From the IMG/VR virus record IMGVR_UViG_3300008261_001827, positions 1 through 44,893 of that record: DNA of 44,893 nucleotides. The stretch is one strand, 5' to 3'. The notes below the pieces were generated by a model that made no database searches, was not told where the DNA came from, and saw only the letters and a list, made by a program, of their open reading frames with translations. Within the stretch, counting starts at the first letter, position 1. Each line of letters starts with the position of its first letter. The position numbers and the translations under genes are program-made. The stretch comes from a virus (Duplodnaviria; Heunggongvirae; Uroviricota; Caudoviricetes). Shown in pieces: positions 1-14,256 of the stretch.

Positions 1-19
1 ATAAAGAGTTTAGAAAAAG

Positions 20-27
20 AATAAATA
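20..27 (+). promoter_or_regulatory. Possible T4-type late promoter (variant AATAAATA)
   Basis: One mismatch to TATAAATA, in non-coding DNA upstream of the RCC1 operon. Confidence 0.4.
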
Positions 28-129
28 TACACGACAGCCGAGTATCCTACGTGGACGCGAAGATGGCTTGATGATTGAATCAGTGATCGCCGCTTTGTCT
101 CCAAGTATATATTCTAGAAGGAGATGAGC

Positions 130-375
130 ATGGCAATTAAGATTCAAGGTACGACGATCATTAATGACGTCACCGCATACATAGATATAAATGGCACCAC
201 GGCAATTAAAGTACCAGCCGGTACCCTTTTACAAAGACCGACGGGTGTAACTGGCCAATTAAGATATAACACAACGGACGCAACATTCGAAGGTTTTAAC
301 GGGACTGCGTGGGGCCCGCTAGGGGGTGGTGCTGACGAACTTGCAAGAACTCTGGCAACGTTGGCGCTACCATAA
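130..375 (+). CDS. Small fibre-associated hypothetical protein
   Basis: AGGAG at 119-123 favours ATG 130 over 124; carries a GQLRYN...FEGFNG..W motif typical of T4-like phage fibre proteins; TAATG coupling to the next gene. Confidence 0.7.
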   Translation: MAIKIQGTTIINDVTAYIDINGTTAIKVPAGTLLQRPTGVTGQLRYNTTDATFEGFNGTAWGPLGGGADELARTLATLALP

Positions 376-1724
376 TGACTGTAGGAATACAACCACTCGT
401 AGATGAAGTAAATACAAATGTAGCAGGGGCGTTAACAACCCTAGAGCAGTTGCAACTCGCGAGTGTAATGCAAGATTTTGATCAAGGATTTACAAAGTGC
501 GTAGCTAACTGCGCAGCGCTTCCAGCTGCGGCTGATAACAAAGGTCGTTGGATCTTTCTTCAAGACGTTTGCAGTTATCGTTGGAGCGACGGGACAGCTT
601 GGTCAAGAGATTTTGCTAGTATTGAACAAAATATTGCTTTTTCATTTGGATGCAATGCTGATAACCAGCTGGGTGACAGAACCACAACCAACAGATCTTC
701 TCCAGTGTCAGTCTTAGGTGATGTCTTATACTGGTGTCAGGTGAGCGCTGGTAATGGATTTAATATTGGAGTTCGCAGTGATATGACTGCTTGGGGTTGG
801 GGCTGTAACGCAGGGGGCGAACTAGGTGACTGTACTAGCGTTAATAGAATCATACCTAGGCCAGTCGTTGGTGGCTTTGGTGACTGGTGTCAGGTTAGTG
901 CCGGAGCAAATCATAGTATAGGTGTTCGTCAGAATGGAACTGCTTGGGCCTGGGGGTTGGGATCATGTGGTCAGCTGGGTGATGGAACTTCAGTAAGCAA
1001 GTCTTCTCCAGTATTAGTCGTCGGCGGTTTTACGGACTGGTGTCAAGTAAGCGCCGGTCAACACTTCATACTTGGTGTTCGTCAAAATGGAACGGCCTGG
1101 GGTTGGGGTTGTGGTAGTGGAGGTCGTCTCGGTAACGAAACAACAGTCAATAAATGTTCTCCAGTATCAGTTGTTGGCGGTTTTAGTGACTGGTGTCAGG
1201 TTAGCGCTGGGACCGCTCACAGTCTAGGTGTTCGACAGAACGGGACCGCTTGGGCCTGGGGATGTAATACTTGTGGCCCACTGGGCGACGGCACTACAGT
1301 TGATAAATCTTCTCCTGTGTCAGTCGTAGGTGGCTTTACCGACTGGTGTCAGGTTAGTGCCGGAGCAAATCATAGTCTAGGTGTTCGACAGAATGGAACT
1401 GCTTGGGGTTGGGGTGCTGGCGCTGACGGACGCATTGGTAACGGAACTATAGTTAGTGTATCTTCTCCAGTGTCAGTCGTCGGCGGGTTCACGGACTGGT
1501 GTCAAGTAAGTGCCGGGCTTGGGCACAGTCTAGGCGTTCGCCAAAATGGCACCGCTTGGGCTTGGGGACAGGGTTCAACTGGTCGTCTTGGTGATGGCAC
1601 GGTCGTAAACAAATCTTCTCCAGTGTCAATCGCTGGCGGACTAACCGGTTGGAGATGCGTAAGTATATATACAAATGGTAATCATAGCTTAGCTGTTAGA
1701 TCTGATAGTACGAAGGGTTTTTAA
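375..1724 (+). CDS. RCC1-repeat 7-bladed beta-propeller protein 1
   Basis: Seven 51-aa repeats (AWxWG-x4-GxLGD...KSSPVxVVGGFTDWCQVSAGxxHSLGVRxNGT) after an ~87-aa N-terminal domain. Confidence 0.92.
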   Translation: MTVGIQPLVDEVNTNVAGALTTLEQLQLASVMQDFDQGFTKCVANCAALPAAADNKGRWIFLQDVCSYRWSDGTAWSRDFASIEQNIAFSFGCNADNQLGDRTTTNRSSPVSVLGDVLYWCQVSAGNGFNIGVRSDMTAWGWGCNAGGELGDCTSVNRIIPRPVVGGFGDWCQVSAGANHSIGVRQNGTAWAWGLGSCGQLGDGTSVSKSSPVLVVGGFTDWCQVSAGQHFILGVRQNGTAWGWGCGSGGRLGNETTVNKCSPVSVVGGFSDWCQVSAGTAHSLGVRQNGTAWAWGCNTCGPLGDGTTVDKSSPVSVVGGFTDWCQVSAGANHSLGVRQNGTAWGWGAGADGRIGNGTIVSVSSPVSVVGGFTDWCQVSAGLGHSLGVRQNGTAWAWGQGSTGRLGDGTVVNKSSPVSIAGGLTGWRCVSIYTNGNHSLAVRSDSTKGF

Positions 1725-1725
1725 T

Positions 1726-3039
1726 ATGAACGTAACGAATCTAATACTCAATCTTAAATCAAAAATCGGCGATGCTACGATTGATCAGCAGATGCTTTCA
1801 AAAGCAATAAAATTGTTAGAACTTGGTACTATTGAATCAGTTTCATCATTTTCAAGTCTTCCGAACGCTGCTACAACAGGCAGAGATAAATTATACTTGG
1901 TTGAGTTTGACGGCCTATACAAAACTAACGGAACTTATTGGGCGCCTTTTGCTCAGGATTTTTCACCAGCTTTTTCCTGGGGATGTAATACTTGTGGCCC
2001 ACTGGGCGACGGCACTACAGTTGATAAGTCTTCTCCAGTGTCAGTCGTTGGTGGCTTTACCGACTGGTGTCAGGTAGATGCAGGTCACAACCATAGTCTA
2101 GGAGTTCGTACTAACGGAACTGCTTGGGCTTGGGGTCAAGGCACAAATGGTCGCCTTGGTGACAACACAAACGTTTCAAAATCTTCGCCTGTGTTAGTCT
2201 CTGGAGGATTTAGTGACTGGTGTCAGGTAAGCGTTGGATATATGCATAGTATAGGAGTTCGACAGAACGGGACCGCTTGGGCTTGGGGTGCTGGTATTGG
2301 CGGACAACTTGGTGATAATACAATAGTTGATAAGTCTTCTCCTGTGTCAGTCGTTGGTGGATTTACAGACTGGTGTCAAGTAAGTGCTGGGGAATGCTAC
2401 AATTTAGGAGTGCGCCAAGGTGGGGGCGCTTGGGCGTGGGGATCGGCAATCAACGGGAAACTAGGCGACGGAACAACAGTCGGTAAATCTTCGCCAGTAT
2501 TAGTAGCAGGCGGTTTTAGTGACTGGTGTCAGGTAGATGCAGGTAACTACCATAGTCTAGGAGTTCGACAGAACGGGACTGCTTGGGCTTGGGGCACTGG
2601 TTGCCGTGGGCAGGTTGGTGACGGAACAACAGTTAATAAATCTTCTCCTGTGTTAGTCGTAGGTGGCTTTACCGACTGGTGTCAGGTTAGTGCCGGATTT
2701 GTTCACAGCATAGGAGTTCGTCAGAATGGAACCCTGTGGGCATGGGGGCAAGGGGTAGGAGGTCTACTAGGTGATAACACTGTAGTTGCTAAATCTTCTC
2801 CAGTGTCAGTCGTTGGAGGTTTTACAGATTGGTGCCAAGTGAGTGCTGGAGGTGTTCACAGTTTGGGTATTCGCACAAATGGAACAGCTTGGGCTTGGGG
2901 TTGCGGCACAAATGGTCGCCTTGGTGATAATACAACAGTTAATAAATCTTCGCCTGTGTTAGTCTCTGGAGGATTTAGTGACTGGTGTCAGGTAAGTACT
3001 TTTGTCACTAGCGCAGCAATTAGGAGAACGAATGTATGA
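1726..3039 (+). CDS. RCC1-repeat beta-propeller protein 2
   Basis: Seven RCC1 repeats plus N-terminal helical domain. Confidence 0.92.
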   Translation: MNVTNLILNLKSKIGDATIDQQMLSKAIKLLELGTIESVSSFSSLPNAATTGRDKLYLVEFDGLYKTNGTYWAPFAQDFSPAFSWGCNTCGPLGDGTTVDKSSPVSVVGGFTDWCQVDAGHNHSLGVRTNGTAWAWGQGTNGRLGDNTNVSKSSPVLVSGGFSDWCQVSVGYMHSIGVRQNGTAWAWGAGIGGQLGDNTIVDKSSPVSVVGGFTDWCQVSAGECYNLGVRQGGGAWAWGSAINGKLGDGTTVGKSSPVLVAGGFSDWCQVDAGNYHSLGVRQNGTAWAWGTGCRGQVGDGTTVNKSSPVLVVGGFTDWCQVSAGFVHSIGVRQNGTLWAWGQGVGGLLGDNTVVAKSSPVSVVGGFTDWCQVSAGGVHSLGIRTNGTAWAWGCGTNGRLGDNTTVNKSSPVLVSGGFSDWCQVSTFVTSAAIRRTNV

Positions 3040-4406
3040 ACTTAGCACAATTTCAAATATTACTCCAAAAAGCAATCGACAGTTCAAGTAATACACTCGA
3101 TTACCTATTTCTATCAAGAGCAGTCCAAACTCTAGCCGTAGGACAGGTAAGAGAAGTTGCCACATACGCAAACTTACCTTCAGCTGCATCTAACGAAGGA
3201 CTGTTAGTATTCGTAACGGCGGATGAAAGGATTTATTGGAGTACTGGAACTGGCTGGTATAATCTTATCGATGAAAATAAAGGAATTGCGTATGCATGGG
3301 GTGGTGGGGGCAGAGGTAAACTAGGTGATAATACAGAAGTCAATAAATCTTCTCCAGTTTCAGTCATTGGTAGCTTTACAGACTGGTGTCAAGTAAGCGC
3401 CGGTGGTAGTCACAGTATTGGCCTTCGCTCTAACGGAACTGTCTGGGCATGGGGGTGTAGTGCATATGGCCGCCTCGGTGATAACTGCACTGTTCTACCA
3501 AGTTCTTCTGGTAGATCTTCACCAGTATCAGTAGTCGGCGGTTTTACAGACTGGTGTTATGTAAGTGCCGGGGATGACCACAACTTAGGTGTTCGTACTA
3601 ATGGAACTGCATGGGGTTGGGGAAACCCGTGCCATGGGGTACTAGGTAACAACTTCAACGGTTCCATTAATGTTATTGATGGAACCGGTGGTTTCTCTTC
3701 TCCAGTGTCAGTCGTTGGTGGCTTTACAGACTGGTGCCAAGTGAGCGCTGGGGGCAGTCACAGTCTAGGTGTTCGACGGAACGGGACCGCTTGGGCTTGG
3801 GGATGCGGTAGTTACGGTCTTCTTGGCGATGGCACTACAGTATGCAAGTCTTCTCCAGTATTAGTCGTCGGCGGTTTTACGGACTGGTGTCAGGTAGATG
3901 CAGGTGGCGGTCGCAACTTAGGTGTTCGCCAAAATGGAACTGCATGGGGTTGGGGTTGCGGCTCCAATGGTCGCCTTGGTGACGGAACAACAGTTAATAA
4001 ATCTTCTCCAGTGTCAGTAGTTGGAGGCTTTACCGACTGGTGTCAGGTTAGCGCTGGGTCCGCTCACAGTCTAGGTGTTCGTACTAACGGAACCGCTTGG
4101 GCGTGGGGAGCGGCTTTCTGCGGGAAACTAGGCGACGGAACAACAGTCAATAAATCTTCGCCAGTATCAGTCGTCGGTGGGTTCTTTGACTGGTGTCAGG
4201 TTAGTGCCGGAGCAAATCATAGTCTAGGTGTTCGCCAGAATGGAACCGCTTGGGCATGGGGAATTGCTGCTTGCGGCGTTTTAGGATCTGGTGCGCCTGC
4301 CAATGCATCTTCTCCAGTATCAGTCGTCGGTGGCTTTACAGACTGGTGTCAAGTAAGCGCTAGCAATTATCACAGCTTAGCTCTAAGAAGAACAAATTTC
4401 GTATAA
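3036..4406 (+). CDS. RCC1-repeat beta-propeller protein 3
   Basis: Seven RCC1 repeats, two with loop insertions; ATGA overlap with upstream gene. Confidence 0.92.
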   Translation: MNLAQFQILLQKAIDSSSNTLDYLFLSRAVQTLAVGQVREVATYANLPSAASNEGLLVFVTADERIYWSTGTGWYNLIDENKGIAYAWGGGGRGKLGDNTEVNKSSPVSVIGSFTDWCQVSAGGSHSIGLRSNGTVWAWGCSAYGRLGDNCTVLPSSSGRSSPVSVVGGFTDWCYVSAGDDHNLGVRTNGTAWGWGNPCHGVLGNNFNGSINVIDGTGGFSSPVSVVGGFTDWCQVSAGGSHSLGVRRNGTAWAWGCGSYGLLGDGTTVCKSSPVLVVGGFTDWCQVDAGGGRNLGVRQNGTAWGWGCGSNGRLGDGTTVNKSSPVSVVGGFTDWCQVSAGSAHSLGVRTNGTAWAWGAAFCGKLGDGTTVNKSSPVSVVGGFFDWCQVSAGANHSLGVRQNGTAWAWGIAACGVLGSGAPANASSPVSVVGGFTDWCQVSASNYHSLALRRTNFV

Positions 4407-4430
4407 TGATAATTACAAAGGAGAAAATAA

Positions 4431-5072
4431 ATGTATGCAGTAGTTTATAACGATAGAGTAATTGTCGGACCAATGGATTGGAACCGCGCAATTTTTCAAG
4501 GATCTCTAGAAAAAGAAAATGTCACGGCTGGCATTCCTAGAGTAGCGCCAGAAACTCTTCCATATATTATTAATGAAGACACAAGAATTGCACTAGTAGA
4601 AGAACAGAGACCAGAAATCAATCCTATGGTAGAATACTACTATGGACCACAGTGGGATCTTTCCGGTGACAAGGCGGTCGCAGTATATGAAGTAGTAGAT
4701 ACACTAGTTGATTTCGCTCGCGATAATTTTAAAACTAAAGCGGCCGAAGCAAGATGGAAAAAAGAAACAGCTGGAACGAAAATAAATATACAAGGTACCG
4801 AAGTTAGTCTAGATACTAGCCGTGACGGAAGAAATATTTTCATACAGAAGTATTCTATTATGACGGAAGAAGAAGTTGCAAATTGGAAATTCCCAGAAGG
4901 TTGGCTCACTCTTACAAAGAGCGATCTTGGTTCTATTGTTTCTGCCGGTTCGAGTTATATTCAAAGTTGCTTTGACTGGGAGAAAACAATTAATGATGAA
5001 ATTAATGCAGCGACATCAAAAGAAGAATTGGTATCTATTGGTGAACAAATAGCGGAACAGATGGTAGAATAA
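4431..5072 (+). CDS. DUF4376-like protein (putative fibre assembly/accessory factor)
   Basis: AAGGAG RBS; C-terminal AEARWKKETAG...DTSRDGR...NWKF..GWLTLT...IQSCFDWE...INAA pattern matches DUF4376 phage proteins. Confidence 0.7.
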   Translation: MYAVVYNDRVIVGPMDWNRAIFQGSLEKENVTAGIPRVAPETLPYIINEDTRIALVEEQRPEINPMVEYYYGPQWDLSGDKAVAVYEVVDTLVDFARDNFKTKAAEARWKKETAGTKINIQGTEVSLDTSRDGRNIFIQKYSIMTEEEVANWKFPEGWLTLTKSDLGSIVSAGSSYIQSCFDWEKTINDEINAATSKEELVSIGEQIAEQMVE

Positions 5073-5073
5073 T

Positions 5074-6438
5074 ATGCCCCCAATCGATAAACCAGGTTTG
5101 GTATCAAAACTAACGACCGTAGTTAATACTGCGTATGAAACCGGGTCATATCTTGTTGAAGACGTATTAGCAACATCTTTATCTATGACTGCACTGAGTG
5201 AGATTAATATTGTCACTGTATCTGACGTACTTTCATTGCCGAATCTTAAATATTACGATTCGCCAAACGCAATGATCTATTACGTTAACGATATAGACGT
5301 ATTTGCGGTAAGTTCTAATTTTAAGTGGCTAACACTTGACGGCAGGCTTCTAAGGCAGGATACCACATACGGAAAAATTTGGTCTTGGGGAAATAACAAT
5401 CTTGGCCAACTAGGTGATAGTACAGCAGTTTCTAAATCGTCTCCGGTATCAACTGCACCATCTGGTTGGTGTCAGTTAAGCGCTGGCGAATGTCATAGTT
5501 TGGCCGTCTGTACAAATGGTACAGCATGGGCTTGGGGTTCAAACTTTTTAGGTAAACTTGGTGACAATACTGCTGTCACCAAGTCTTCTCCAGTGTCAGT
5601 AGTTGGCGGCTTCACAGACTGGTGCCAAGTTAGTGCTGGGAACTATCATAGTCTAGGTGTTCGCACTAATGGAACGGCTTGGGCTTGGGGGGCAAACACT
5701 TTTGGGCAGCTAGGTGACTGCACTACAGTCGCAAAGTCTTCACCAGTATCAGTAATTAGCGGTATTACAGGGTGGTGTCGTGTAAGCGCAGGCACACTGT
5801 TTAGTATCGGAATTAGAGCAAACGGTGAAGCGTTTGGTTGGGGCAATGCCGGGTCTGGCCGTCTTGGGGATGGTACCACAGTTTCTAAATCTTCGCCTGC
5901 TCTAATTTCTGGAGGATTTAATAACTGGTGTCAGGTTAGTGCTGGCGGAGGTCATGCACTAGGAGTGCGTACCAATTCATCCGTTTGGGCTTGGGGAGGA
6001 AACTCTTTCGGTCAACTCGGTGATAACACGGTAGTTTCTAAATCTTCTCCAGTACAAGTAGTCGGTGGTTTTAATAACTGGCGCGAGGTAAGCGCTGGTG
6101 GGTGTCACAGCCTTGGCCGCAGATCTGATGGAACTTTATATGCCTGGGGGAATGGTTGCTGCGGCAACCTCGGAGACAACTGCACAGTTTCCAGATCATC
6201 TCCAGTGTCAGTCTCTGGAGGATTTACAGACTGGTGCCAAGTAAGCGCAGGATGCTGCCATAATATAGGTGTTAGAACTAATGGCACAGTCTGGGCTTGG
6301 GGTGTCGGGACATGTGGTCGTCTAGGAGACAATGCTGTCGCTAATAGATCTTCGCCAGTATCAGTCGTTGGTGGCTTTACAAGCTGGTGCGCGGTTAGTG
6401 CAGGTAACGACCATAGTCTAGGGATAATAAGCTTATGA
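5074..6438 (+). CDS. RCC1-repeat beta-propeller protein 4
   Basis: Seven RCC1 repeats plus N-terminal domain. Confidence 0.92.
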   Translation: MPPIDKPGLVSKLTTVVNTAYETGSYLVEDVLATSLSMTALSEINIVTVSDVLSLPNLKYYDSPNAMIYYVNDIDVFAVSSNFKWLTLDGRLLRQDTTYGKIWSWGNNNLGQLGDSTAVSKSSPVSTAPSGWCQLSAGECHSLAVCTNGTAWAWGSNFLGKLGDNTAVTKSSPVSVVGGFTDWCQVSAGNYHSLGVRTNGTAWAWGANTFGQLGDCTTVAKSSPVSVISGITGWCRVSAGTLFSIGIRANGEAFGWGNAGSGRLGDGTTVSKSSPALISGGFNNWCQVSAGGGHALGVRTNSSVWAWGGNSFGQLGDNTVVSKSSPVQVVGGFNNWREVSAGGCHSLGRRSDGTLYAWGNGCCGNLGDNCTVSRSSPVSVSGGFTDWCQVSAGCCHNIGVRTNGTVWAWGVGTCGRLGDNAVANRSSPVSVVGGFTSWCAVSAGNDHSLGIISL

Positions 6439-7793
6439 TAAATTCACAAAATCTCGTAAATAAAATTTGTGCTTGCATAAGCGGGGGCGGGCTTACAGCG
6501 TTACAAACTTGCCAAACAAACGGTGCCCTAACTATTCTAAGTAATCCTGTATCTAGCGTAGCAAGTTTTGCTAACTTGCCAAACGCAGTAACATACGCAG
6601 GAAGACTGATATATGTTAATGATGAAAACCGCTATTATCACGCGGTAGACGGATATTGGTTTAATAATCTCACTAGTGAAGTTTTTAACTATCGCCCAGA
6701 CATTTATGCTTGGGGATATAATGCCACAGGTGGGCTTGGCGACGGAACCGTAGTCAACAGATCTTCTCCAGTATCAGTCGTTGGCGGCTTTACAGATTGG
6801 TGTAATGTAAGTGCCGGATACCTCCACGGTTTAGGTGTTCGTACTAATGGAACCGCTTGGGCATGGGGGAATGGGTCATGCGGGCGTCTCGGTGATAACA
6901 CATCGGTGAATAAATCTTCTCCAGTATCAGTTGTTGGCGGCTTTACAGACTGGTGTCAAGTGAGCGCTGGGAACGCTCATAGTCTAGGTGTTCGTACTAA
7001 TGGAACTGCTTGGGCATGGGGTCCTGGGACATACGGTCGCCTCGGTGACAACAGCACAGTTTCCAGATCATCTCCAGTATCAGTTGTTGGCGGCTTTACA
7101 GACTGGAGTCAAGTAAGCGCTGGGGGCAGTCACAGTCTAGGTATTCGACGAAATGGAACGACTTGGGCATGGGGGAATGGGTCATGCGGGCGTCTCGGTG
7201 ACGGAACAACAGTTGCTAAATCTTCTCCTGTGTCAGTCGTTGGTGGATTTACAGACTGGTGCCAAGTAAGCGCTGGGCGCGGCATATTGGGCACTCACAG
7301 TCTAGGTGTTCGTACTAATGGAACTGCATGGGCTTGGGGGGATGGAACATGCGGTCGCCTTGGTAATAATACAATAGTCAACAGATCTTCCCCAGTATCA
7401 GTCGTTGGCGGCTTTACCGACTGGTGTCAGGTTAGTGCCGGAGCAAATCATAGTCTAGGTGTTCGACAGAACGGGACCGCTTGGGCTTGGGGAACTGCAT
7501 TCTGCGGCGTTCTTGGCGACAACACGATAGTTTCAAAATCTTCTCCAGTGTCAGTCGTCGGCGGGTTCACGGACTGGTGTCAAGTAAGCGCAGGCGAAAC
7601 TCATAATCTAGGATTAAGAACTAATGGAACACTGTGGGCGTGGGGTTCTAACACCCAAGGTCGTCTAGGGGATAATACTATTACAGCTAAGTCTTCGCCA
7701 GTGTCAATCGTAGGTGGACTAACTGGCTGGTGTCAAATAAGCGCTAACCTTTGCTCTAGCATGGCTATTCGCCAATCACGGAAAGGATTTTAA
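6435..7793 (+). CDS. RCC1-repeat beta-propeller protein 5
   Basis: Seven RCC1 repeats; ATGA overlap; C-terminus ends KGF like protein 1. Confidence 0.92.
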   Translation: MINSQNLVNKICACISGGGLTALQTCQTNGALTILSNPVSSVASFANLPNAVTYAGRLIYVNDENRYYHAVDGYWFNNLTSEVFNYRPDIYAWGYNATGGLGDGTVVNRSSPVSVVGGFTDWCNVSAGYLHGLGVRTNGTAWAWGNGSCGRLGDNTSVNKSSPVSVVGGFTDWCQVSAGNAHSLGVRTNGTAWAWGPGTYGRLGDNSTVSRSSPVSVVGGFTDWSQVSAGGSHSLGIRRNGTTWAWGNGSCGRLGDGTTVAKSSPVSVVGGFTDWCQVSAGRGILGTHSLGVRTNGTAWAWGDGTCGRLGNNTIVNRSSPVSVVGGFTDWCQVSAGANHSLGVRQNGTAWAWGTAFCGVLGDNTIVSKSSPVSVVGGFTDWCQVSAGETHNLGLRTNGTLWAWGSNTQGRLGDNTITAKSSPVSIVGGLTGWCQISANLCSSMAIRQSRKGF

Positions 7794-9128
7794 ATGGCTA
7801 CGCAAGATGACATAAACAACTTTACTTCTAGTAATTCTGTCGGATGCTTTTTAAAGCTAGCAGCACAAACATACGTTGATACTACGAATAGAAGTATTTC
7901 TGTTGCGACCGTAGACGATCTTCCGGACTTAAGCGGTAATACTATTATACCAGGAACTATATTTTACGTTGAAAGTTTGGGTGTTCCAGTAATTGCGCAA
8001 GTCGGGTGCTGGAGCGGATTGGATAACCGTCAGTTAAGAAGCGATTTTAATACGAATTTAATTTACGCGTGGGGGTTTCCTACTTCAGGACGCCTAGGTG
8101 ATAATACTACTGTGTCTAAATCTTCTCCAGTGTTAGTCGCTGGAGGGTTTAATGACTGGCAAGCAGTAAGCGGCACTGGCTCGCATGCCTTAGGCATACG
8201 TTCTAATGGAATCGCTTGGGCTTGGGGTGCTGGTACTTCTGGAGAACTTGGTGATAATACAACAGTTGATAAATCTTCTCCAGTGTCAGTCGTTGGTGGC
8301 TTTACAGACTGGTGTCAAGTAAGCGGTGGTGGTGTTCACAGTTTGGGTATTCGTACTAATGGAACTGCATGGGGTTGGGGCGCAAACACTTTTGGCAATA
8401 TTGGTGATAACACCGGTGGTGGTAAATCTTCTCCTGTGTCAGTCGTAGGTGGCTTTACAGACTGGTGTCAAGTGAGCGCTGGGAACGCTCACAGTCTAGG
8501 TGTTCGTACTAATGGAACTGCATGGGGTTGGGGATGTAATACTGGCGGTGGACAACTTGGCGACAACACGACAGCGACTAAATCATCACCAGTATCGGTT
8601 GTTGGCGGCTTTACAGACTGGTGCCAAGTAAGTGCGTCGGTGCACAGTCTAGGTGTTCGCCAAAATGGCACCGCCTGGGCTTGGGGGGATGGAGCATGCG
8701 GGCGTCTTGGTGATTACACTACAGTTGCTAAATCTTCTCCAGTGTTAGTCGTCGGCGGGTTCACGGACTGGTGTCAAGTAAGCGCAGCAAGATGCCATAG
8801 TCTAGGTGTTCGACAGAACGGGACCGCTTGGGCTTGGGGTCTTGGAACTGACGGCCGTCTCGGTGACAACACTGTAGCTGCCAAATCTTCTCCAGTGTCA
8901 GTCGTCGGTGGCTTTACGAACTGGTGTCAGGTGGCTACAGGCTGCACCCACAGCATAGGTGTCCGACAGAACGGAACTGTCTGGTCTTGGGGTGACAACA
9001 CCTTTGGACAACTAGGTCACGGCACTTTGGTTGCTAGATCTTCTCCAGTGTCAGTTGCTGGTGGGTTAACCGGCTGGAGTCAAGTTAGCGCAGGCATAGT
9101 GTTCAGCACAGCCGTAAGAGCAGTATAG
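7794..9128 (+). CDS. RCC1-repeat beta-propeller protein 6
   Basis: Seven RCC1 repeats plus N-terminal domain. Confidence 0.92.
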   Translation: MATQDDINNFTSSNSVGCFLKLAAQTYVDTTNRSISVATVDDLPDLSGNTIIPGTIFYVESLGVPVIAQVGCWSGLDNRQLRSDFNTNLIYAWGFPTSGRLGDNTTVSKSSPVLVAGGFNDWQAVSGTGSHALGIRSNGIAWAWGAGTSGELGDNTTVDKSSPVSVVGGFTDWCQVSGGGVHSLGIRTNGTAWGWGANTFGNIGDNTGGGKSSPVSVVGGFTDWCQVSAGNAHSLGVRTNGTAWGWGCNTGGGQLGDNTTATKSSPVSVVGGFTDWCQVSASVHSLGVRQNGTAWAWGDGACGRLGDYTTVAKSSPVLVVGGFTDWCQVSAARCHSLGVRQNGTAWAWGLGTDGRLGDNTVAAKSSPVSVVGGFTNWCQVATGCTHSIGVRQNGTVWSWGDNTFGQLGHGTLVARSSPVSVAGGLTGWSQVSAGIVFSTAVRAV

Positions 9129-9144
9129 CATCATAGTTTTTTTG

Positions 9145-9152
9145 TATAAATA
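9145..9152 (+). promoter_or_regulatory. T4-type late promoter TATAAATA upstream of modification island 1
   Basis: Exact consensus in the intergenic gap 9129-9259. Confidence 0.75.
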
Positions 9153-9259: not shown

Positions 9260-9820
9260 ATGAAGATTAATCTTGGCGCTGGTGGAACGAAGCTCGATGG
9301 TTTTGTAACTCTAGATTACGACCCGCTTGAAAATCCAGACTATATCGTAGATCTGGAAAAAGACACACTGCCATTCGAAGATAGCACAGTTGAAGTTGTT
9401 ATCGCTCATCACATACTCGAACATCTTGGGCCTGGTTATTTCCATTGCCTTAAAGAAATCTATCGAGTCTGTAAGCATGGAGCGACGATAGACATTCGTG
9501 TTCCGCATCATCGGCACGACTACTTCTACGACGACCCAACACATCGTAGACCAATTACTGTTGGTGGTCTTCTTCTTTTTAGTAAGAAACATAATAAACT
9601 ATGCAGGGAACAAGGCGCTGCGTCAAGCAGACTCGGTGATTACTTTAAAGTTGACTTTGAGATCCTAGATTACAACTATATGCCATCTCAGCAATACCGA
9701 GATCAGTTTGTTGGTGAACCGAGAGATGTTGTTGAAAAGTATCTTCGCGAACACAATAACATTATTGAAGAACTCTGGGTGAATTTAGTGGTGATCAAAG
9801 ATGAACACGGCGGAAAATAA
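9260..9820 (+). CDS. Class I SAM-dependent methyltransferase (Methyltransf_11-like)
   Basis: INLGAGG motif I; LPFEDSTVEVVIAHHILEHL; EIYRVCKHG; DDPTHRR. Confidence 0.8.
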   Translation: MKINLGAGGTKLDGFVTLDYDPLENPDYIVDLEKDTLPFEDSTVEVVIAHHILEHLGPGYFHCLKEIYRVCKHGATIDIRVPHHRHDYFYDDPTHRRPITVGGLLLFSKKHNKLCREQGAASSRLGDYFKVDFEILDYNYMPSQQYRDQFVGEPRDVVEKYLREHNNIIEELWVNLVVIKDEHGGK

Positions 9821-11150
9821 ATTTAAGATAGAAGATCTAAAACCCGTTGTAATGGATCTTCTATCTCACGAAAAACGCGAAATCGTATTTGATATTCTTA
9901 ACATGTATTTTCAAAGAGCAGAGGGTATAGGGGACTTTGATGCTCTTGGATATCTGGCACTAAAAGCAGAACACCGCGATTTGTATCTGAAATGTGCAGA
10001 AGCTGCATATACGAAGGCCGAAAGTCCTCAACAACTATACATCGCCAGATCAAACCTCTATAAAGCATATAACGCAATGAATATGCCGGATGATGCTCTA
10101 TTCTATATTAATCTAAATCTGATGATCACGCCGGATGACTTTGAGACTCAGACTCAAAAAGCGTTTAATATCGCACTCAAGGGAGATAGAACGGCGTCAG
10201 AAAAGATACTGTTAGACTTACTTGAAAAACATCCAGAGAAGCGAGAGGACATGAGAAGTGCTCTGTCGGGTAAAACGCTTCGTGAAGGAAAACTTGCAGA
10301 GGGAGTCTTGTCGTTCCTTGGGACGTTTAAGCCAAAGAGTGGCAAGTTTGATGATGCTCTTAAGATGAAGCGGTGGACCGGAGCAATTCAACCAGGTAAG
10401 ACTGTCTATATAGAGGGAGAGGGAGGTATAGGTGACGAGATCATCAACATTCGCTTTTTCAAATATCTTAAAGACTTAGGAATGAGACCAATACTCTACT
10501 CGTCGTGGTCTAAGTATCGCGAAGACACCGTGAATATGTTTCGTAGAAATGGGTTTGAAGTAATAACTGAGTACTATTCAATTGATCGGACACAACTATG
10601 GGCACCGATGATGAGTCTTCCAGGGTATCTCAATCTCGACGAATCTAAATTGTGGTATGGTTCGTATCTTAAACCTTTGAATGATCCAAAGAATAAAATC
10701 AATAGCACTAAGTTTAAAATTGGTATCAAGTGTTCAGGAAATCCATACTTTTCGCAAGATGAGTATCGTAAGATACCAATCGAAAAGATGTTAGAATACT
10801 TACCAGAGAACGCAGAGATCTATTACATCGACAAGCAGCCAATAAATAATCCTAGAGTAATAGATCTATCGTCAAGAATAGAAACTTGGGAAGATACACT
10901 CGACTTTATTGAACAGATGGACTGTATCGTAAGTTCGTGCACGAGCTTGGTTCATGCCGCTGGCGCTATCGGAAAAACATCTTTTGTTGTAGTTCCAATT
11001 GCGGAGTATTACATTTGGTCTACTTCCAGTAAGACGTCAAAGTCTCCTTGGTATGGAGATAACTTTCAAGTACACAAACAGACTAAAGTTCGAAGCTGGG
11101 ACGAACCTCTGCAATGCGTAAATGAACAACTTTTGAAATTGATTGGATAA
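9801..11150 (+). CDS. TPR-containing GT-B glycosyltransferase (GT9-like C-terminus)
   Basis: Helical N-terminal repeats; EGEGGIGDEIINIRF and DCIVSSCTSLVHAAGAIGK match the EQGxGD / DLVISVDTxxxHLAGALG pattern. Confidence 0.75.
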   Translation: MNTAENKFKIEDLKPVVMDLLSHEKREIVFDILNMYFQRAEGIGDFDALGYLALKAEHRDLYLKCAEAAYTKAESPQQLYIARSNLYKAYNAMNMPDDALFYINLNLMITPDDFETQTQKAFNIALKGDRTASEKILLDLLEKHPEKREDMRSALSGKTLREGKLAEGVLSFLGTFKPKSGKFDDALKMKRWTGAIQPGKTVYIEGEGGIGDEIINIRFFKYLKDLGMRPILYSSWSKYREDTVNMFRRNGFEVITEYYSIDRTQLWAPMMSLPGYLNLDESKLWYGSYLKPLNDPKNKINSTKFKIGIKCSGNPYFSQDEYRKIPIEKMLEYLPENAEIYYIDKQPINNPRVIDLSSRIETWEDTLDFIEQMDCIVSSCTSLVHAAGAIGKTSFVVVPIAEYYIWSTSSKTSKSPWYGDNFQVHKQTKVRSWDEPLQCVNEQLLKLIG

Positions 11151-11152
11151 TT

Positions 11153-11929
11153 ATGAACAAAACATATCACTTCATAACAGGTCTGCCTCGGTCGGGTTCA
11201 ACTCTGTTATCATCTATACTTCGTCAGAACCCAAGGTTTCACGCTTCAATTACTGACCCACTGGCAAGTCTAGTTAAGGGAGTTATTGAACATAGTCAAG
11301 ACGCTCCTGGAATGAAATCTGAAGTTCCTGTTGAACGCAGAAAGAACCTTGTGCGGCATTTATTCGAAGGTTACTACGAAGACGTCGATAGGCCAGTAGT
11401 ATTCAATACAAATAGAGCATGGACATACCTAACAAATGTTACTCGTGATCTCTATCCAAAATCAAAATACATAGTTTGTGTAAGGGATTTGAATTGGGTA
11501 ATAGACAGCTTTGAGTCTGCCCATCGCAGAAATCCATTCTCCACAAACACGGTGACTGGTGGCGTAGGAAGTTCAGTGTATCAACGAGTAGATAGTCTTA
11601 TGAAGGAAGACGGGGTTGTAGGTTTTCCATACGTTGGAATTAAGCAGGCTCTTACTGGTCATGATCAGCCACTTCTGTTCTTATTAGAATACGACTTGTT
11701 GTGCAAGCAGCCAAAAGAAATGATGAAAGCTCTTTACAACTTCATAGAAGAACCTTATTTTGAACATGATTTTAATAATGTAGAAGCTTCTTGGGATGAG
11801 TACGACGCAGAGATTGGTATTAAACTTCACGACGTTCGTAAGAAAGTTGAATTCCGCGAAAGAAAGTTTATACTTCCACCAGATATCCTTAATAAGCACG
11901 CAAATATGGAATTTTGGCGACAACTATGA
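11153..11929 (+). CDS. PAPS-dependent sulfotransferase
   Basis: FITGLPRSGSTLL 5'-PSB loop; YIVCVRD..WVIDSF 3'-PB motif. Confidence 0.85.
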   Translation: MNKTYHFITGLPRSGSTLLSSILRQNPRFHASITDPLASLVKGVIEHSQDAPGMKSEVPVERRKNLVRHLFEGYYEDVDRPVVFNTNRAWTYLTNVTRDLYPKSKYIVCVRDLNWVIDSFESAHRRNPFSTNTVTGGVGSSVYQRVDSLMKEDGVVGFPYVGIKQALTGHDQPLLFLLEYDLLCKQPKEMMKALYNFIEEPYFEHDFNNVEASWDEYDAEIGIKLHDVRKKVEFRERKFILPPDILNKHANMEFWRQL

Positions 11930-12552
11930 CTATAATAAAAAGAGAAGATGGTTTATATTGGCCAGAAATCGATGTCGATTCTTGCTATACATGGACTAAT
12001 GTTGAATTATACACCGTAGATTCAATAGTAGGATCTCTTAAGAATAAGCGCACAATAATTCACGCGGGTGGAAACGTTGGAGCATACACTTTAAAATTTG
12101 CCGAAGCATTCGAGACAGTTTATGTGTTTGAACCGGATGTTACAAACTTCAAGTGTCTATGCATGAATACTGCAGATCATGAAAACGTATTTCAGTTTAG
12201 AGCAGCACTAGGTAGTAAGGCATCGCAAGTTTCTATCACTAATGACACTCCAGAAAATTGCGGTACGTTTCGTGTAAAGGAAGATGGAAACATTCCTGTA
12301 ATAACGATAGACAGTCTTGGATTGACAGACATAGATTGTATACATTTAGATGTTGAAGGTTACGAAATGAATGCATTACTCGGAGCAGAGAACACTATAA
12401 AACTGCATCGTCCATTAATTGTAGTAGAATGGCTGGATCACGGTAAAAATTATGGTTGGGATAAAAAAGATATTATGAACTTTCTGCTTGATATGGGATA
12501 TAATCAAATGAAACAAATCGGTTCTGATATGATGTTTAAAAATGAAAATTGA
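11926..12552 (+). CDS. FkbM-family methyltransferase
   Basis: IHAGGNVGAY, VFEPD..NF, IDCIHLDVEGYEMNALLGA; start moved to 11926 (ATGA overlap). Confidence 0.85.
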   Translation: MTIIKREDGLYWPEIDVDSCYTWTNVELYTVDSIVGSLKNKRTIIHAGGNVGAYTLKFAEAFETVYVFEPDVTNFKCLCMNTADHENVFQFRAALGSKASQVSITNDTPENCGTFRVKEDGNIPVITIDSLGLTDIDCIHLDVEGYEMNALLGAENTIKLHRPLIVVEWLDHGKNYGWDKKDIMNFLLDMGYNQMKQIGSDMMFKNEN

Positions 12553-13324
12553 TATATTTTTACGAACTTGCGACGTCACAAACGTTCATACTGATTGGCG
12601 AGTTAGATACCACGGAATTGAAAAATCAGATCTTATTGTAGGATGTGTATCATCTTTAGTAAACGCAATAAATAATACTAAAGGAATGGATATTAATCTG
12701 ACGGTTCTCGACGATCATTCTTCAGAAGATACGGTTCAAAGAATCAAAGAGATCATTCAGAAAGTAGAAAATTCTAAACTAATACAACTCGATCAAAGTG
12801 GATACAATCATTCTGCTCATCAGCAGTGGATCCTTTGTAGGGATAGCAATTCGGACTTAGTGTATTCTGTTGAAGACGACTATCTTCACTGCCCCTCGGC
12901 AATACAGGAAATGGTTGACTCGTTTTATATGTTTTGCGATAGATTGAAACGAGAAGACATAGTGATATATCCATTCGACGAGCCGTCTGAATACGATCCT
13001 CCTGCTAGAACAGACTTCATAGTCCATGGCTCTGCTCGTCACTGGAGAACTGGAATATTTACAACAAACGTCATGATGACTACTCCAAAAATGTTTCGTG
13101 ACAACTGGGAACTTTTCGAGGTTCTTGCTCTTAAGTATAACGGTGACTATCTTAATCCGAGAACGGAACACTACGAAGAGTCAAATACGATCTGGAAGAT
13201 ATGGCAGAGCAACAAAGCGATTAGATTCAATCCGATCCCAAGTCTTGCATTACATATGCAATTTGAGCAACAGAAAGATCCTTTTATAGAATGGCAACAA
13301 TGGTGGAAAGATTACGCAAAATGA
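12542..13324 (+). CDS. GT-A (GT2-like) glycosyltransferase
   Basis: LTVLDDHSS and VYSVEDDYLH motifs; paralog of 15877-16680. Confidence 0.7.
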   Translation: MKIDIFLRTCDVTNVHTDWRVRYHGIEKSDLIVGCVSSLVNAINNTKGMDINLTVLDDHSSEDTVQRIKEIIQKVENSKLIQLDQSGYNHSAHQQWILCRDSNSDLVYSVEDDYLHCPSAIQEMVDSFYMFCDRLKREDIVIYPFDEPSEYDPPARTDFIVHGSARHWRTGIFTTNVMMTTPKMFRDNWELFEVLALKYNGDYLNPRTEHYEESNTIWKIWQSNKAIRFNPIPSLALHMQFEQQKDPFIEWQQWWKDYAK

Positions 13325-14256
13325 ACACTACATTTATTATTAACGGCGGTGCAGGAAGAGTAATTGCAGCGATACCTGCATTAGAAAAATTTCATAGACT
13401 AAATCCAAAGAATGATTTTAGAGTAATCGTTCACGGGTGGCAAGACTTATATTGGAGCCATCCTATTCTTCAACCAAGAACGATAGGAATTCATCAAAAG
13501 AATATCTTTGAAGAGTACGTAAAGAATTATAATCTAGTGTGCCCAGAACCTTATTATATACACGACTACTACAATCAAAAGATATCACTAGCTGAAGCAT
13601 TTGACCGTCAAATAAATAATACGACGGATCATAAGGATCTCGAAAAGCCTAACCTATACATCAGCACCTATGAGCGTACATCTGTTCAGAGAATTGTTGA
13701 AGAGTTTAAGCAGATACATAAGAAGAATAAAGTAGTGGTATTTCAGCCTTATGGAAGTACTATGACGATTTCAAACAATAGACCATACGATATTTCAAAC
13801 AGAAGTTTAGATGTCGATGACTACTTAAAGATCGGAAAGTTTTTAAACGATAAAGACTGTCTAATCTTCTTCTTTGGTAACAGAGAACTCAAACATCCTG
13901 GAGATAACTTTAGCGCGGATCTAACTAACTTTAATCCTGAACTAAGAATGTACATGGCTCTAATAAGCGAGTGTGATTATTTCGTAGGATGCGATAGCGT
14001 AGGTCAACATATGGCTAGAGCTTTTGATAAACCCGGATCTGTGTTTATGGGTAGTACGTTTGAAAAGAACGTAAGTTATCCTGACCATTTTAAATTCTTT
14101 AGAAAACAGGGACAAGATCCAGTTTACAGTCCGATTCGCCTTGGTGGAGTAGAATCGGACTTCACGGACAGATTGAATGACGGAATCATGAATTTTTCTG
14201 CGAACGAAATTAACGAGTCCTGCCAAGTAATACTTAAAGACATATATGACGAATAA
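13321..14256 (+). CDS. GT9-like (heptosyltransferase-like) glycosyltransferase
   Basis: GGAGRVIAAIPAL, VVFQPYGS, CDYFVGCDSVGQHMARAFDKP; start 13321 by ATGA overlap. Confidence 0.72.
   Translation: MNTTFIINGGAGRVIAAIPALEKFHRLNPKNDFRVIVHGWQDLYWSHPILQPRTIGIHQKNIFEEYVKNYNLVCPEPYYIHDYYNQKISLAEAFDRQINNTTDHKDLEKPNLYISTYERTSVQRIVEEFKQIHKKNKVVVFQPYGSTMTISNNRPYDISNRSLDVDDYLKIGKFLNDKDCLIFFFGNRELKHPGDNFSADLTNFNPELRMYMALISECDYFVGCDSVGQHMARAFDKPGSVFMGSTFEKNVSYPDHFKFFRKQGQDPVYSPIRLGGVESDFTDRLNDGIMNFSANEINESCQVILKDIYDE

Follow-up and report, generated by a model that had tools for sequence, protein, structure and literature searches.

The gp38 adhesins of T-even phages carry hypervariable segments between conserved glycine-rich motifs, with recombination in or near the motifs and a library of segments that extends across the superfamily (Trojet et al. 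2011, PMC3157838; on the same adhesins, Tetart et al. 1996, 1998, as cited in PMC3157838). Proteins with RCC1-like propellers are also known from phages: three tandem RCC1 proteins of phage W70 were detected in virions by mass spectrometry (PMC11370258), and GAP_001 of phage GAP32 is a structural protein with multi-copy homologs in phages 121Q and PBECO4 (PMC5259590). The present analysis concerns an array of six RCC1-type genes (R1 to R6, positions 375-9128) in a stretch of 44,893 nucleotides, hereafter the window, which lies at the start of a 111-kb IMG/VR contig (IMGVR_UViG_3300008261_001827) of an uncultured freshwater T4-like phage (CheckV completeness 53%). The six products are interpreted, with moderate confidence in the statement as a whole, as fiber-associated heads for binding, diversified through recombination at conserved motifs; the anatomical and the evolutionary components of this interpretation are highly probable.

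The six genes are co-directional, with stops and starts that overlap or abut, and each encodes an N-terminal part of 82-102 aa followed by seven blades of 51 aa. The total of 42 blades that had been counted in the initial annotation was confirmed by the open reading frames (ORFs), by Pfam and by a six-frame scan of the whole 111-kb contig, in which 42 RCC1 repeats were found, all within 639-9116 and 41 of them above the cut-off. A W-x-W-G anchor occurs seven times in each protein with a period of 51 aa and a few loop insertions, and all six proteins exceed the Pfam gathering scores for RCC1 (PF00415), RCC1_2 (PF13540) and WD40_RLD (PF25390). RCC1 is used here as the name of a fold family, with no claim of Ran-type GTPase exchange activity; to our knowledge, a GTPase partner for such activity is not expected in a phage or bacterial setting.

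When the 42 blades were aligned, 16 columns were identical in at least 38 of them (at least 90%), and entropy exceeded 2.5 bits only at columns 5, 7, 9 and 11, which follow WG, and at columns 60 and 61, which follow AG; columns 15, 26, 33 and 68 are of intermediate variability. Mean pairwise identity between blades is 64% overall, but 76% in the framework, 28% at the intermediate columns and 17% at the hypervariable ones, and across the 42 blades the four residues that follow WG form 39 different strings and the dipeptides that follow AG are of 30 kinds. The description from which the work started, a near-invariant framework interrupted by two variable segments, is upheld by the per-column entropy, and every loop string quoted in it was found in blades of the array. 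The same register pattern is repeated in 404 canonical blades from 89 family members on many phage contigs, and is therefore a property of the family rather than the product of chance.

R5 was modeled by AlphaFold2 from an alignment of 89 sequences, with a mean predicted local distance difference test score (pLDDT) of 92.6. The model consists of seven four-stranded blades, and its best PDB matches are UVR8 and the RCC1-like domains of HERC1 and HERC2 (E ~1e-35, template modeling (TM) score by target 0.85-0.90); across UVR8, HERC1/2, RPGR and RCC1, the E values range from 1e-30 to 1e-36 and the TM scores by target from 0.80 to 0.90. The propellers of R1-R6 are accordingly predicted to have the RCC1-like seven-blade fold and to be superposable on solved RCC1-like domains. 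DSSP locates the strands of each blade at AWAWG, KSSPVS, WCQVSA and SLGVR, so that the hypervariable columns fall in two places, the long loop that follows AWAWG and the G-x-x turn that leads into SLGV. Because the strands of a beta-meander alternate in direction, both variable loops are predicted to lie on the same side of the propeller, with the conserved VGGFTD and RxNG turns on the opposite face by topology. In a HMMER alignment with UVR8, the columns after WG fall on W94 and D96, and the dipeptide after AG falls on the W and R of GWRHT; these four residues belong to the dimer interface of UVR8 (PMC4501546). The assignment to one face, which was anticipated in the initial annotation and is based on DSSP topology together with the UVR8 alignment, is thus probably correct.

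Constancy of the framework could in principle have come from recent duplication, but third-position diversity between blades is 0.5-0.75 at framework codons, the invariant glycine after WAW is encoded by GGA (14 blades), GGT (14), GGG (10) and GGC (4), and mean nucleotide identity between blades is 65%. Synonymous sites are therefore nearly saturated between blades, which rules out recent duplication as the source of the scaffold identity and indicates that the scaffold is old and is kept constant by purifying selection on the protein sequence.

Superimposed on this background are mosaic tracts. Exact shared runs of at least 30 nt were found in 28 pairs of blades and runs of at least 40 nt in 12 pairs, whereas shuffles that preserve the codon composition of each column gave 1.07 pairs (maximum 8) and 0.025 pairs, respectively. 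In a Sawyer-type permutation of site order, which keeps pairwise distances, 23 were observed against an expectation of 0.31, and none of the 200 permutations gave more than 2. The blades that share tracts are only 64-85% identical overall, showing that the tracts are local, as predicted by gene conversion. The longest exact repeat between blades is 62 nt. The paralog most divergent from the others at the DNA level is R4, and R4 is unchanged among the five strains described next, which fits a mechanism that depends on homology.

Four contigs with the gene order of the window (L021-L024) make, with the window itself, a set of five strains; in public assemblies, variants at least 90% identical were found for each array protein except R4. 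Relative to the window, the four contigs have 0-7 nt differences in the 3.4-8.5 kb downstream of the array and 8-45 nt differences within the 9.2-kb array, nearly all of them in clustered patches (Table 1), so the array is a hot spot of variation in the population. About half of the patches have an exact match of 26-61 nt in another blade of the array. In loop codons, 21 of the strain differences are nonsynonymous and 2 synonymous, versus 7 nonsynonymous and 24 synonymous in framework and N-terminal codons (Fisher p = 4e-7 for the loop contrast, the codon differences being non-independent events). Every strain variant keeps the reading frame, and neither the DUF4376 gene nor ORF83 differs among strains. 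Runs of other studies (2019, 2025) yielded Logan contigs with the same variant alleles at 2143-2178 and 3309-3311. The variants are thus genuine, fall into discrete types and persist over time, which argues against artifacts and against hypermutation in each generation.

Table 1. Coordinates of the array genes, of their two small companions and of the patches that differ among strains (positions in the window)
Feature	Position	Strand	Length	Description
ORF83	124-375	+	83 aa	Directly upstream of R1; stop overlaps R1 start
R1	375-1724	+	449 aa	N-terminal domain 375-638; seven-blade propeller 639-1721
R2	1726-3039	+	437 aa	N-terminal domain 1726-1971; seven-blade propeller 1972-3036
R2 blade 2 patch	2143-2178	+	36 nt	12 nt differences (TN..N.N.S to SD..G.A.N); variant carried by L023 and by contigs from two further studies
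R3	3036-4406	+	456 aa	N-terminal domain; seven-blade propeller 3291-4403; loop insertions in blades 2 and 3
R3 blade 1 loop codon	3309-3311	+		GGC to TTT (G to F); no donor in the array
R3 blade 3 post-AG dipeptide	3753-3757	+		GGCAG to AACGC (GS versus NA); variant matches R6 blade 3 (8469-8506) over 38 nt
R3 blade 5 patch	4082-4091	+		Variant matches R1 (1213-1255), 43 nt identical
DUF4376 protein	4431-5072	+	213 aa	Between R3 and R4; tail-fiber-associated family
R4	5074-6438	+	454 aa	Longest N-terminal domain; propeller 5380-6435
R5	6435-7793	+	452 aa	N-terminal domain; propeller 6705-7790; most polymorphic paralog
R5 blade 2 loop codon	6868-6871	+		Window allele unique among the five strains; matches 7162-7201 over 40 nt
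R5 blade 4 mosaic tract	7176-7293	+	118 nt	24 nt differences plus indels in an A-B loop with an insertion; 61 nt of the variant match R6 blade 3 (8423-8483) exactly
R5 blade 7 loop	7646-7658	+		SNTQ versus QGST, 12 of 13 nt differ; variant matches R1 blade 7 (1563-1588) over 26 nt
R6	7794-9128	+	444 aa	N-terminal domain; propeller 8064-9125

A moderately diverged relative with the layout of the window, L026, extends the comparison to a longer time scale. Between L026 and the window, synonymous divergence per synonymous site (dS) is 0.04-0.20 and nonsynonymous divergence per nonsynonymous site (dN) is at most 0.012 in the flanking genes (DUF4376, methyltransferases, a 449-aa gene, sulfotransferase and others). 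The N-terminal domains of the RCC1 proteins have dS 0.19 and dN 0.044, the framework codons of the propellers have dS 0.89 and dN 0.095, and propeller dN rises to 0.52 at intermediate columns and 0.75 at loop columns. The synonymous excess of five- to eight-fold is more than selection on residues can account for, and indicates that the DNA of the propellers has been replaced. Replacement is blade-wise: 17 of the 41 blades of L026 match their positional counterpart best, with identities of 82-93%, and for the other 24 the counterpart (58-78%) is no closer than a random blade. In R1 of L026, blades 1, 5 and 7 were kept, blades 3, 4 and 6 do not have the counterpart as best match, and blade 2 is marginally nearest its counterpart (0.75 versus 0.73); R2 was wholly replaced and R4 mostly kept. 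The donors of the replaced blades are not in the array of the window, which implies exchange with a wider pool of related phages.

The N-terminal domains behave differently. In four phage lineages that share a layout of three RCC1 genes, DUF4376 and three RCC1 genes, N-terminal domains at the same position in different phages are 48% identical, versus 21% for those at different positions within a phage, and the best hit of the N-terminal domain of each paralog of the window is its positional counterpart. The corresponding identities of the propellers are 63%, 65% and 63%, whatever the relation. The six-gene layout is therefore ancient and each paralog has an N-terminal identity of its own, a pattern that fits six fixed attachment sites with exchangeable heads. 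The diversifying modular set that was proposed at the outset accordingly stands in one part and falls in another: the loops are the fastest-changing sites and recombination exchanges them, but the proteins are not interchangeable units and are not assembled by a program.

These patterns can be joined in one explanation. The region would be a conserved cassette of late-structural type in a T4-like phage, in which the slow, paralog-specific N-terminal domain anchors each protein to a fixed site on the tail fiber or baseplate, and the C-D and A-B loops of all seven blades make up a "top" face that presents a ligand-binding surface to structures on the host cell surface. Purifying selection holds the scaffold residues nearly identical across the 42 blades, and the uniform scaffold would in turn offer many short stretches of DNA homology for recombination, so that loop segments and whole blades could be exchanged, by homologous recombination or short-tract gene conversion, with other blades of the same array and with the arrays of related co-infecting phages. 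The binding face would thereby be re-tiled far faster than by point mutation, with the anchors and neighboring genes remaining constant. Diversification of this kind is evolutionary in time scale, and selection, over and above the mechanics of recombination, probably maintains the variation of the loops.

A location of R1-R6 in the virion, associated with fibers, is the most likely one given the synteny, the domain fusions and the mass-spectrometric precedents in other phages, and host binding by virion-borne propellers is moderately probable. The strain contigs, which reach beyond the window start, have in order a gene for a 427-aa protein resembling the distal part of long tail fibers, with a Peptidase_S74 chaperone, genes for a 1074-aa fiber-like protein and a 604-aa collagen-like fiber protein, and the ORF of 81-83 aa that adjoins the array. 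Downstream of the array is an 11-kb island of methyl-, sulfo- and glycosyltransferase genes, followed by further fiber genes that include one for a 1700-aa collagen/S74 protein; the location among fiber genes stated in the initial annotation is thus borne out on both sides. A cassette of RCC1 genes, DUF4376, RCC1 genes, a methyltransferase, a 433-452-aa gene and a sulfotransferase recurs in divergent IMG/VR contigs with varying copy numbers, some contigs having fused genes of 12 and 14 blades, and DUF4376 occupies the equivalent position in the arrays of L009, L010, L012-L014, L017 and L026. In the cultured Synechococcus phage S-SRM01, the order is baseplate wedge, long tail fiber, RCC1, hypothetical protein, RCC1, tetratricopeptide repeat (TPR) protein, further genes, RCC1 and sulfotransferase. 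A 2192-aa homolog combines RCC1 propellers with a C-terminal Peptidase_S74 chaperone, and matches in BFVD place RCC1 propellers in proteins described as having a T7 tail-fiber N-terminal domain or named tail fiber protein.

Several results weigh against this explanation or limit it. Between blades, dN/dS is uninformative, as synonymous sites and loop codons are both saturated. Half of the strain patches have no donor in the available sequence, and R4 and R6 lack strain-level variation, indicating that not every propeller is diversifying at present. Conversion between diverged blades would by itself, in the absence of selection, bring in part of the nonsynonymous excess seen in the loops, so the strain codon counts alone are not proof of selection. 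The evidence for a location in the particle is indirect throughout, and the mass-spectrometric precedents are distant RCC1 proteins of enterobacterial phages. The T4-type late promoter TATAAATA has no occurrence in 1-9128, the nearest being at 9145, past the array, and matches resembling sigma-70 promoters and terminators are at chance level. The N-terminal domain has no significant match to a known anchor or trimerization domain in PHROG, Atlas or Foldseek searches, the lowest Foldseek E values being 0.01-0.15: PHROG scans gave only matches to tail proteins at E 0.01-0.1, the Atlas feature search gave scores below 0.85, and a separate AlphaFold2 model of the domain (pLDDT 77) has no significant PDB match. 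The best of the non-significant PDB matches, the collagen XV/XVIII trimerization domain (E 0.15) with CBA120 TSP3 alongside, and the matches at E 0.01-0.2 in the AlphaFold database, to proteins with Gp9/Gp10 N-terminal domains and a head fiber protein, are leads only. Prediction of the R5 N-terminal domain as a homotrimer returned a score of 0.00 ("no answer"), which counts neither way.

The main rival, which is judged improbable, is that the variation is a by-product of recombination: the loops would be unconstrained, 42 repeats would invite ectopic conversion and recombination between phages, and there would be no adaptive role in host recognition. Saturation of synonymous sites between blades leaves the loop divergence compatible with neutrality, the framework dS relative to L026 is also high (0.89 versus ~0.1 in the flanks), signifying replacement of DNA and not selection on residues, and R4 combines the lowest DNA similarity with a lack of strain variation, which fits a homology-dependent mechanism. 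However, a neutral by-product is hard to reconcile with a scaffold that is strongly purified in every blade while recombinant loops are tolerated at one face only, or with single-codon triple substitutions, such as that at 3309-3311, that have neither flanking synonymous changes nor a donor. The same alternative alleles also persist over several studies and years, and a conserved anchor with a fast-evolving distal domain is typical of receptor-binding proteins (PMC3157838).

Another rival accepts rapid evolution of the loops but takes the proteins out of the virion, as intracellular or secreted effectors that bind host proteins and evolve fast in an arms race with their targets or with host defenses. 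RCC1 propellers are generic modules of protein-protein interaction, and RCC1-like domains of eukaryotes and some bacterial RCC1-like effectors bind host proteins; the evidence for presence in the virion is indirect, and no late promoter motif lies directly upstream in the window. On the other side, the genes lie between fiber genes and the fiber-associated DUF4376 gene in a synteny kept across divergent phages, related propellers are fused to S74 fiber chaperones and to T7-fiber N-terminal domains, a cysteine frequency that reaches 10-18% at exposed loop positions suits an extracellular protein better than a cytoplasmic one, and mass spectrometry places phage RCC1 proteins in virions (PMC11370258, PMC5259590). 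This rival is therefore considered quite unlikely.

The initial annotation likened the array to an antibody- or variable lymphocyte receptor (VLR)-style repertoire, and a programmed generator, whether by retrohoming as in diversity-generating retroelements (DGRs) or by somatic assembly in the manner of VLRs and antibodies, would rewrite the loops in each infection cycle. Multi-nucleotide changes restricted to loops in otherwise identical genomes, and identical, donor-like tracts elsewhere in the array, are what such a generator might leave. The likeness to a repertoire fails because all six genes are complete, the N-terminal domains are position-specific and the same few alleles recur across studies and years. 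As had been noted for the window, there is no reverse transcriptase: RVT_1 has no match at E <= 1 in the 111-kb contig, which represents ~53% of the genome. The substitutions are of all types rather than adenine-specific and the donor tracts are exact copies; the six intact genes are accompanied by no incomplete germline gene and no separate store of silent cassettes; and only 2-3 discrete alleles occur per site, recurring over samples and years, unlike the outcome of mutagenesis in each generation. A programmed diversity generator is very improbable and already largely refuted.

Equally improbable is that the patches are artifacts of assembling a repetitive region from metagenomes, for although Logan contigs (k=31) break inside the array with spurious joints, exact repeats between blades are all much shorter than the k=141 used for the strain assemblies, a mis-join would shift the register or delete blades instead of replacing 3-13 nt and then returning, and identical variants, always in frame, occur in independent samples and studies.

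A further development of the preferred explanation, binding heads diversified by recombination, is doubtful but deserves mention. Uniformity of the scaffold might be selected partly at the level of DNA and architecture, making the array a self-contained generator of diversity that is independent of reverse transcriptase. Each blade would serve as donor cassette while also being expressed, and short-patch gene conversion would carry finished loops among 42 positions on six differently anchored heads, and between co-infecting phages. If this is true, a lineage could re-tile its host-binding surfaces combinatorially within a population, and the array is a germline phage analog of chicken immunoglobulin (Ig) genes, vlsE and pilS.

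Some features of individual blades may be recorded here. Low synonymous diversity was observed at certain framework codons (columns 35, 39, 44, 46 and 48, in the segments K-S-S-P-V-S-V and F-T-D-W-C), with third-position values of 0.05-0.4 versus ~0.7 elsewhere; serine is encoded by TCA in 30 of 31 cases at one column and by TCT in 36 of 40 at another. These codons may be under codon-level constraint or may be a preferred microhomology for recombination. In the 404 family blades, cysteine is strongly enriched at three exposed hypervariable positions of the register (18% at position 5, 14% at 8 and 10% at 40), a further cysteine in the WCQV strand is 74% conserved, and cysteines 8 and 40 co-occur within one blade (odds ratio 4.1, p 1.6e-5, uncorrected for relatedness). 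The pattern suggests metal sites or disulfides that staple the loops, such as an extracellular protein might have. An N-G-T sequon and a K-S-S-P motif are kept in every blade, on or near the invariant face. Only in R5 blade 4 does the A-B turn contain an insertion of four residues (RGIL, 7278-7293), and this turn is indel-polymorphic (GGRAAGA in L021), so that loop length varies among strains along with loop sequence. In R3 blade 3, a nine-residue insertion in the C-D loop (3659-3687) is encoded by a terminator-like inverted repeat with a 13-bp stem, which may be a trace of how the insertion arose.

Two small genes accompany the array. ORF83 matches many PHROG families over short stretches, internal or N-terminal in those families, among them a virion structural protein (E 4e-14) and a baseplate wedge subunit; it also precedes the array in L021-L024 and L026, is invariant among the strains and is 90% identical in L026. 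It is translationally coupled to R1 and may be a small adaptor, and the DUF4376 protein is a possible helper of fiber assembly. The 154-aa ORFs that follow the large fiber genes in the window and in L023 were compared and are unrelated.

The genes that follow the array at 9260-14256 encode a methyltransferase, the 433-452-aa protein, a sulfotransferase, an FkbM methyltransferase and proteins like glycosyltransferases of families GT2 and GT9, in a synteny kept in L009-L020 and L026. The 433-452-aa gene has no Pfam match, and its positional counterpart in S-SRM01 (L025) is annotated as a TPR protein. The propellers, with their conserved N-G-T and K-S-S-P motifs, might be substrates of this modification island. 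L016 and L017 are the two ends of one 202-kb IMG/VR contig, and the array spans both ends, consistent with a circularly permuted complete genome; in this array, products of 1288 aa (14 anchors) and 816 aa (12 anchors) come from fused genes, and there are single propellers as well, so the number of propellers per gene and of genes per array is plastic.

Of the candidates scored, more than 6,700 proteins belong to the family with E <= 1e-10 as the limit, many of them encoded on contigs of 100-300 kb. The phage collection holds no match of near-identical DNA, and a protein search of it gave relatives of only 23-43% identity, such as those of S-SRM01 and BUCT-ZZ01. Multi-propeller relatives in Chryseobacterium (P0236, P0261), ~40% identical, carry C-terminal sorting domains of the type IX secretion system (T9SS) and fibronectin type III domains; they are predicted to be secreted or cell-surface proteins, and the phage RCC1 family may share ancestry with bacterial surface adhesins. 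No discussion of the phage family was found in the searchable literature; the annotation of its members goes no further than "regulator of chromosome condensation". Searches that combined RCC1 with cyanophage or with receptor-binding protein had no relevant result, the matches to "RCC" being names of culture-collection strains, and the paper on S-SRM01 does not mention its RCC1 genes.

The family is very abundant in freshwater viral metagenomes, as a conserved cassette of six or more genes adjoining genes for tail fibers and for sugar and sulfate transfer. If the propellers are host-binding heads, they probably rank among the main factors that set the host range of a large group of uncultured T4-like phages, and represent a natural consensus-repeat scaffold with a binding face diversified by recombination. 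Host specificity would then be testable by tracking loop alleles in time series and by binding assays with single propellers, and protein engineering would gain a stable seven-fold scaffold with defined variable positions. The strain comparisons provide unusually direct evidence of gene conversion, from the scale of a codon to that of a blade, in a natural phage population.

Among known systems, the solved structures of closest fold are those of Arabidopsis UVR8 and of HERC1/HERC2 (PDB 4dnw, 4d9s, 7q40, 4o2w), with 24-30% identity and TM scores up to 0.90, and UVR8 forms its protein-protein interface with the very residues (W94, D96, and W and R within GWRHT) that are homologous to the variable loop positions. 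Those are eukaryotic signaling proteins, however, with blades far less alike than the 64% found here, no array of paralogs and no phage context. The RCC1-like "DNA condensation protein" arrays of jumbo enterobacterial phages (GAP32 GAP_001, 121Q_234-248 and PBECO4; PMC5259590) and the three RCC1 virion proteins of W70 are likewise multi-copy tandem propellers of large myoviruses, mass spectrometry has detected some of the jumbo-phage proteins in virions, and R1 and the W70 proteins match the same PHROG (phrog_4219, E 4e-16), but their sequence similarity to R1-R6 is only distant. The organization of the present array is one of six position-specific N-terminal domains with near-consensus bodies and variation confined to loops. 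The six N-termini share no invariant peptide of 12-15 residues; only M1, V, L and W are common to them, and their identity is 14-31%.

The DGR target Mtd of Bordetella phage BPP-1 is also a tail-fiber-associated binding protein, as R1-R6 are proposed to be, with a rigid scaffold and with variation concentrated on a solvent-exposed binding face. Mtd depends on a reverse transcriptase, a template repeat and adenine-specific mutagenesis, and has a C-type-lectin fold, none of which is present here; a DGR was ruled out by the lack of reverse transcriptase in the contig and by the substitution spectrum. Lamprey VLRs, chicken Ig pseudo-V genes, Borrelia vlsE and Neisseria pilE/pilS resemble the array in having repeat or cassette donors and templated short-tract conversion between conserved flanks. 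They act somatically or within clonal lineages, where silent donors feed a single expression site at rates that are high and programmed, whereas all units of the array are complete genes, with exchange seen on evolutionary and population time scales only; a somatic assembly system was ruled out by the six complete ORFs and the few discrete alleles found across samples and years.

The likeness in logic to gp38 of T-even phages (Straboviridae) extends to T4-like phages as carriers, a conserved N-terminal part for attachment with a variable C-terminal part for specificity, short hypervariable loops that alternate with highly conserved glycine-rich structural motifs, and recombination in or near the motifs that shuffles loops in a large phage gene pool. 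Membership of R1-R6 in the gp38 family was ruled out by their RCC1 fold, as gp38 is a polyglycine sandwich with no homology to the seven-blade propeller in sequence or fold. Receptor binding is demonstrated for gp38 and proposed for R1-R6. One small protein with four segments in gp38 corresponds here to six paralogs with 42 units, among which blade-to-blade conversion within a genome is possible. What is new relative to the logic of gp38 is thus the fold, the six-fold multiplication and the presence of 42 mutually templating units.

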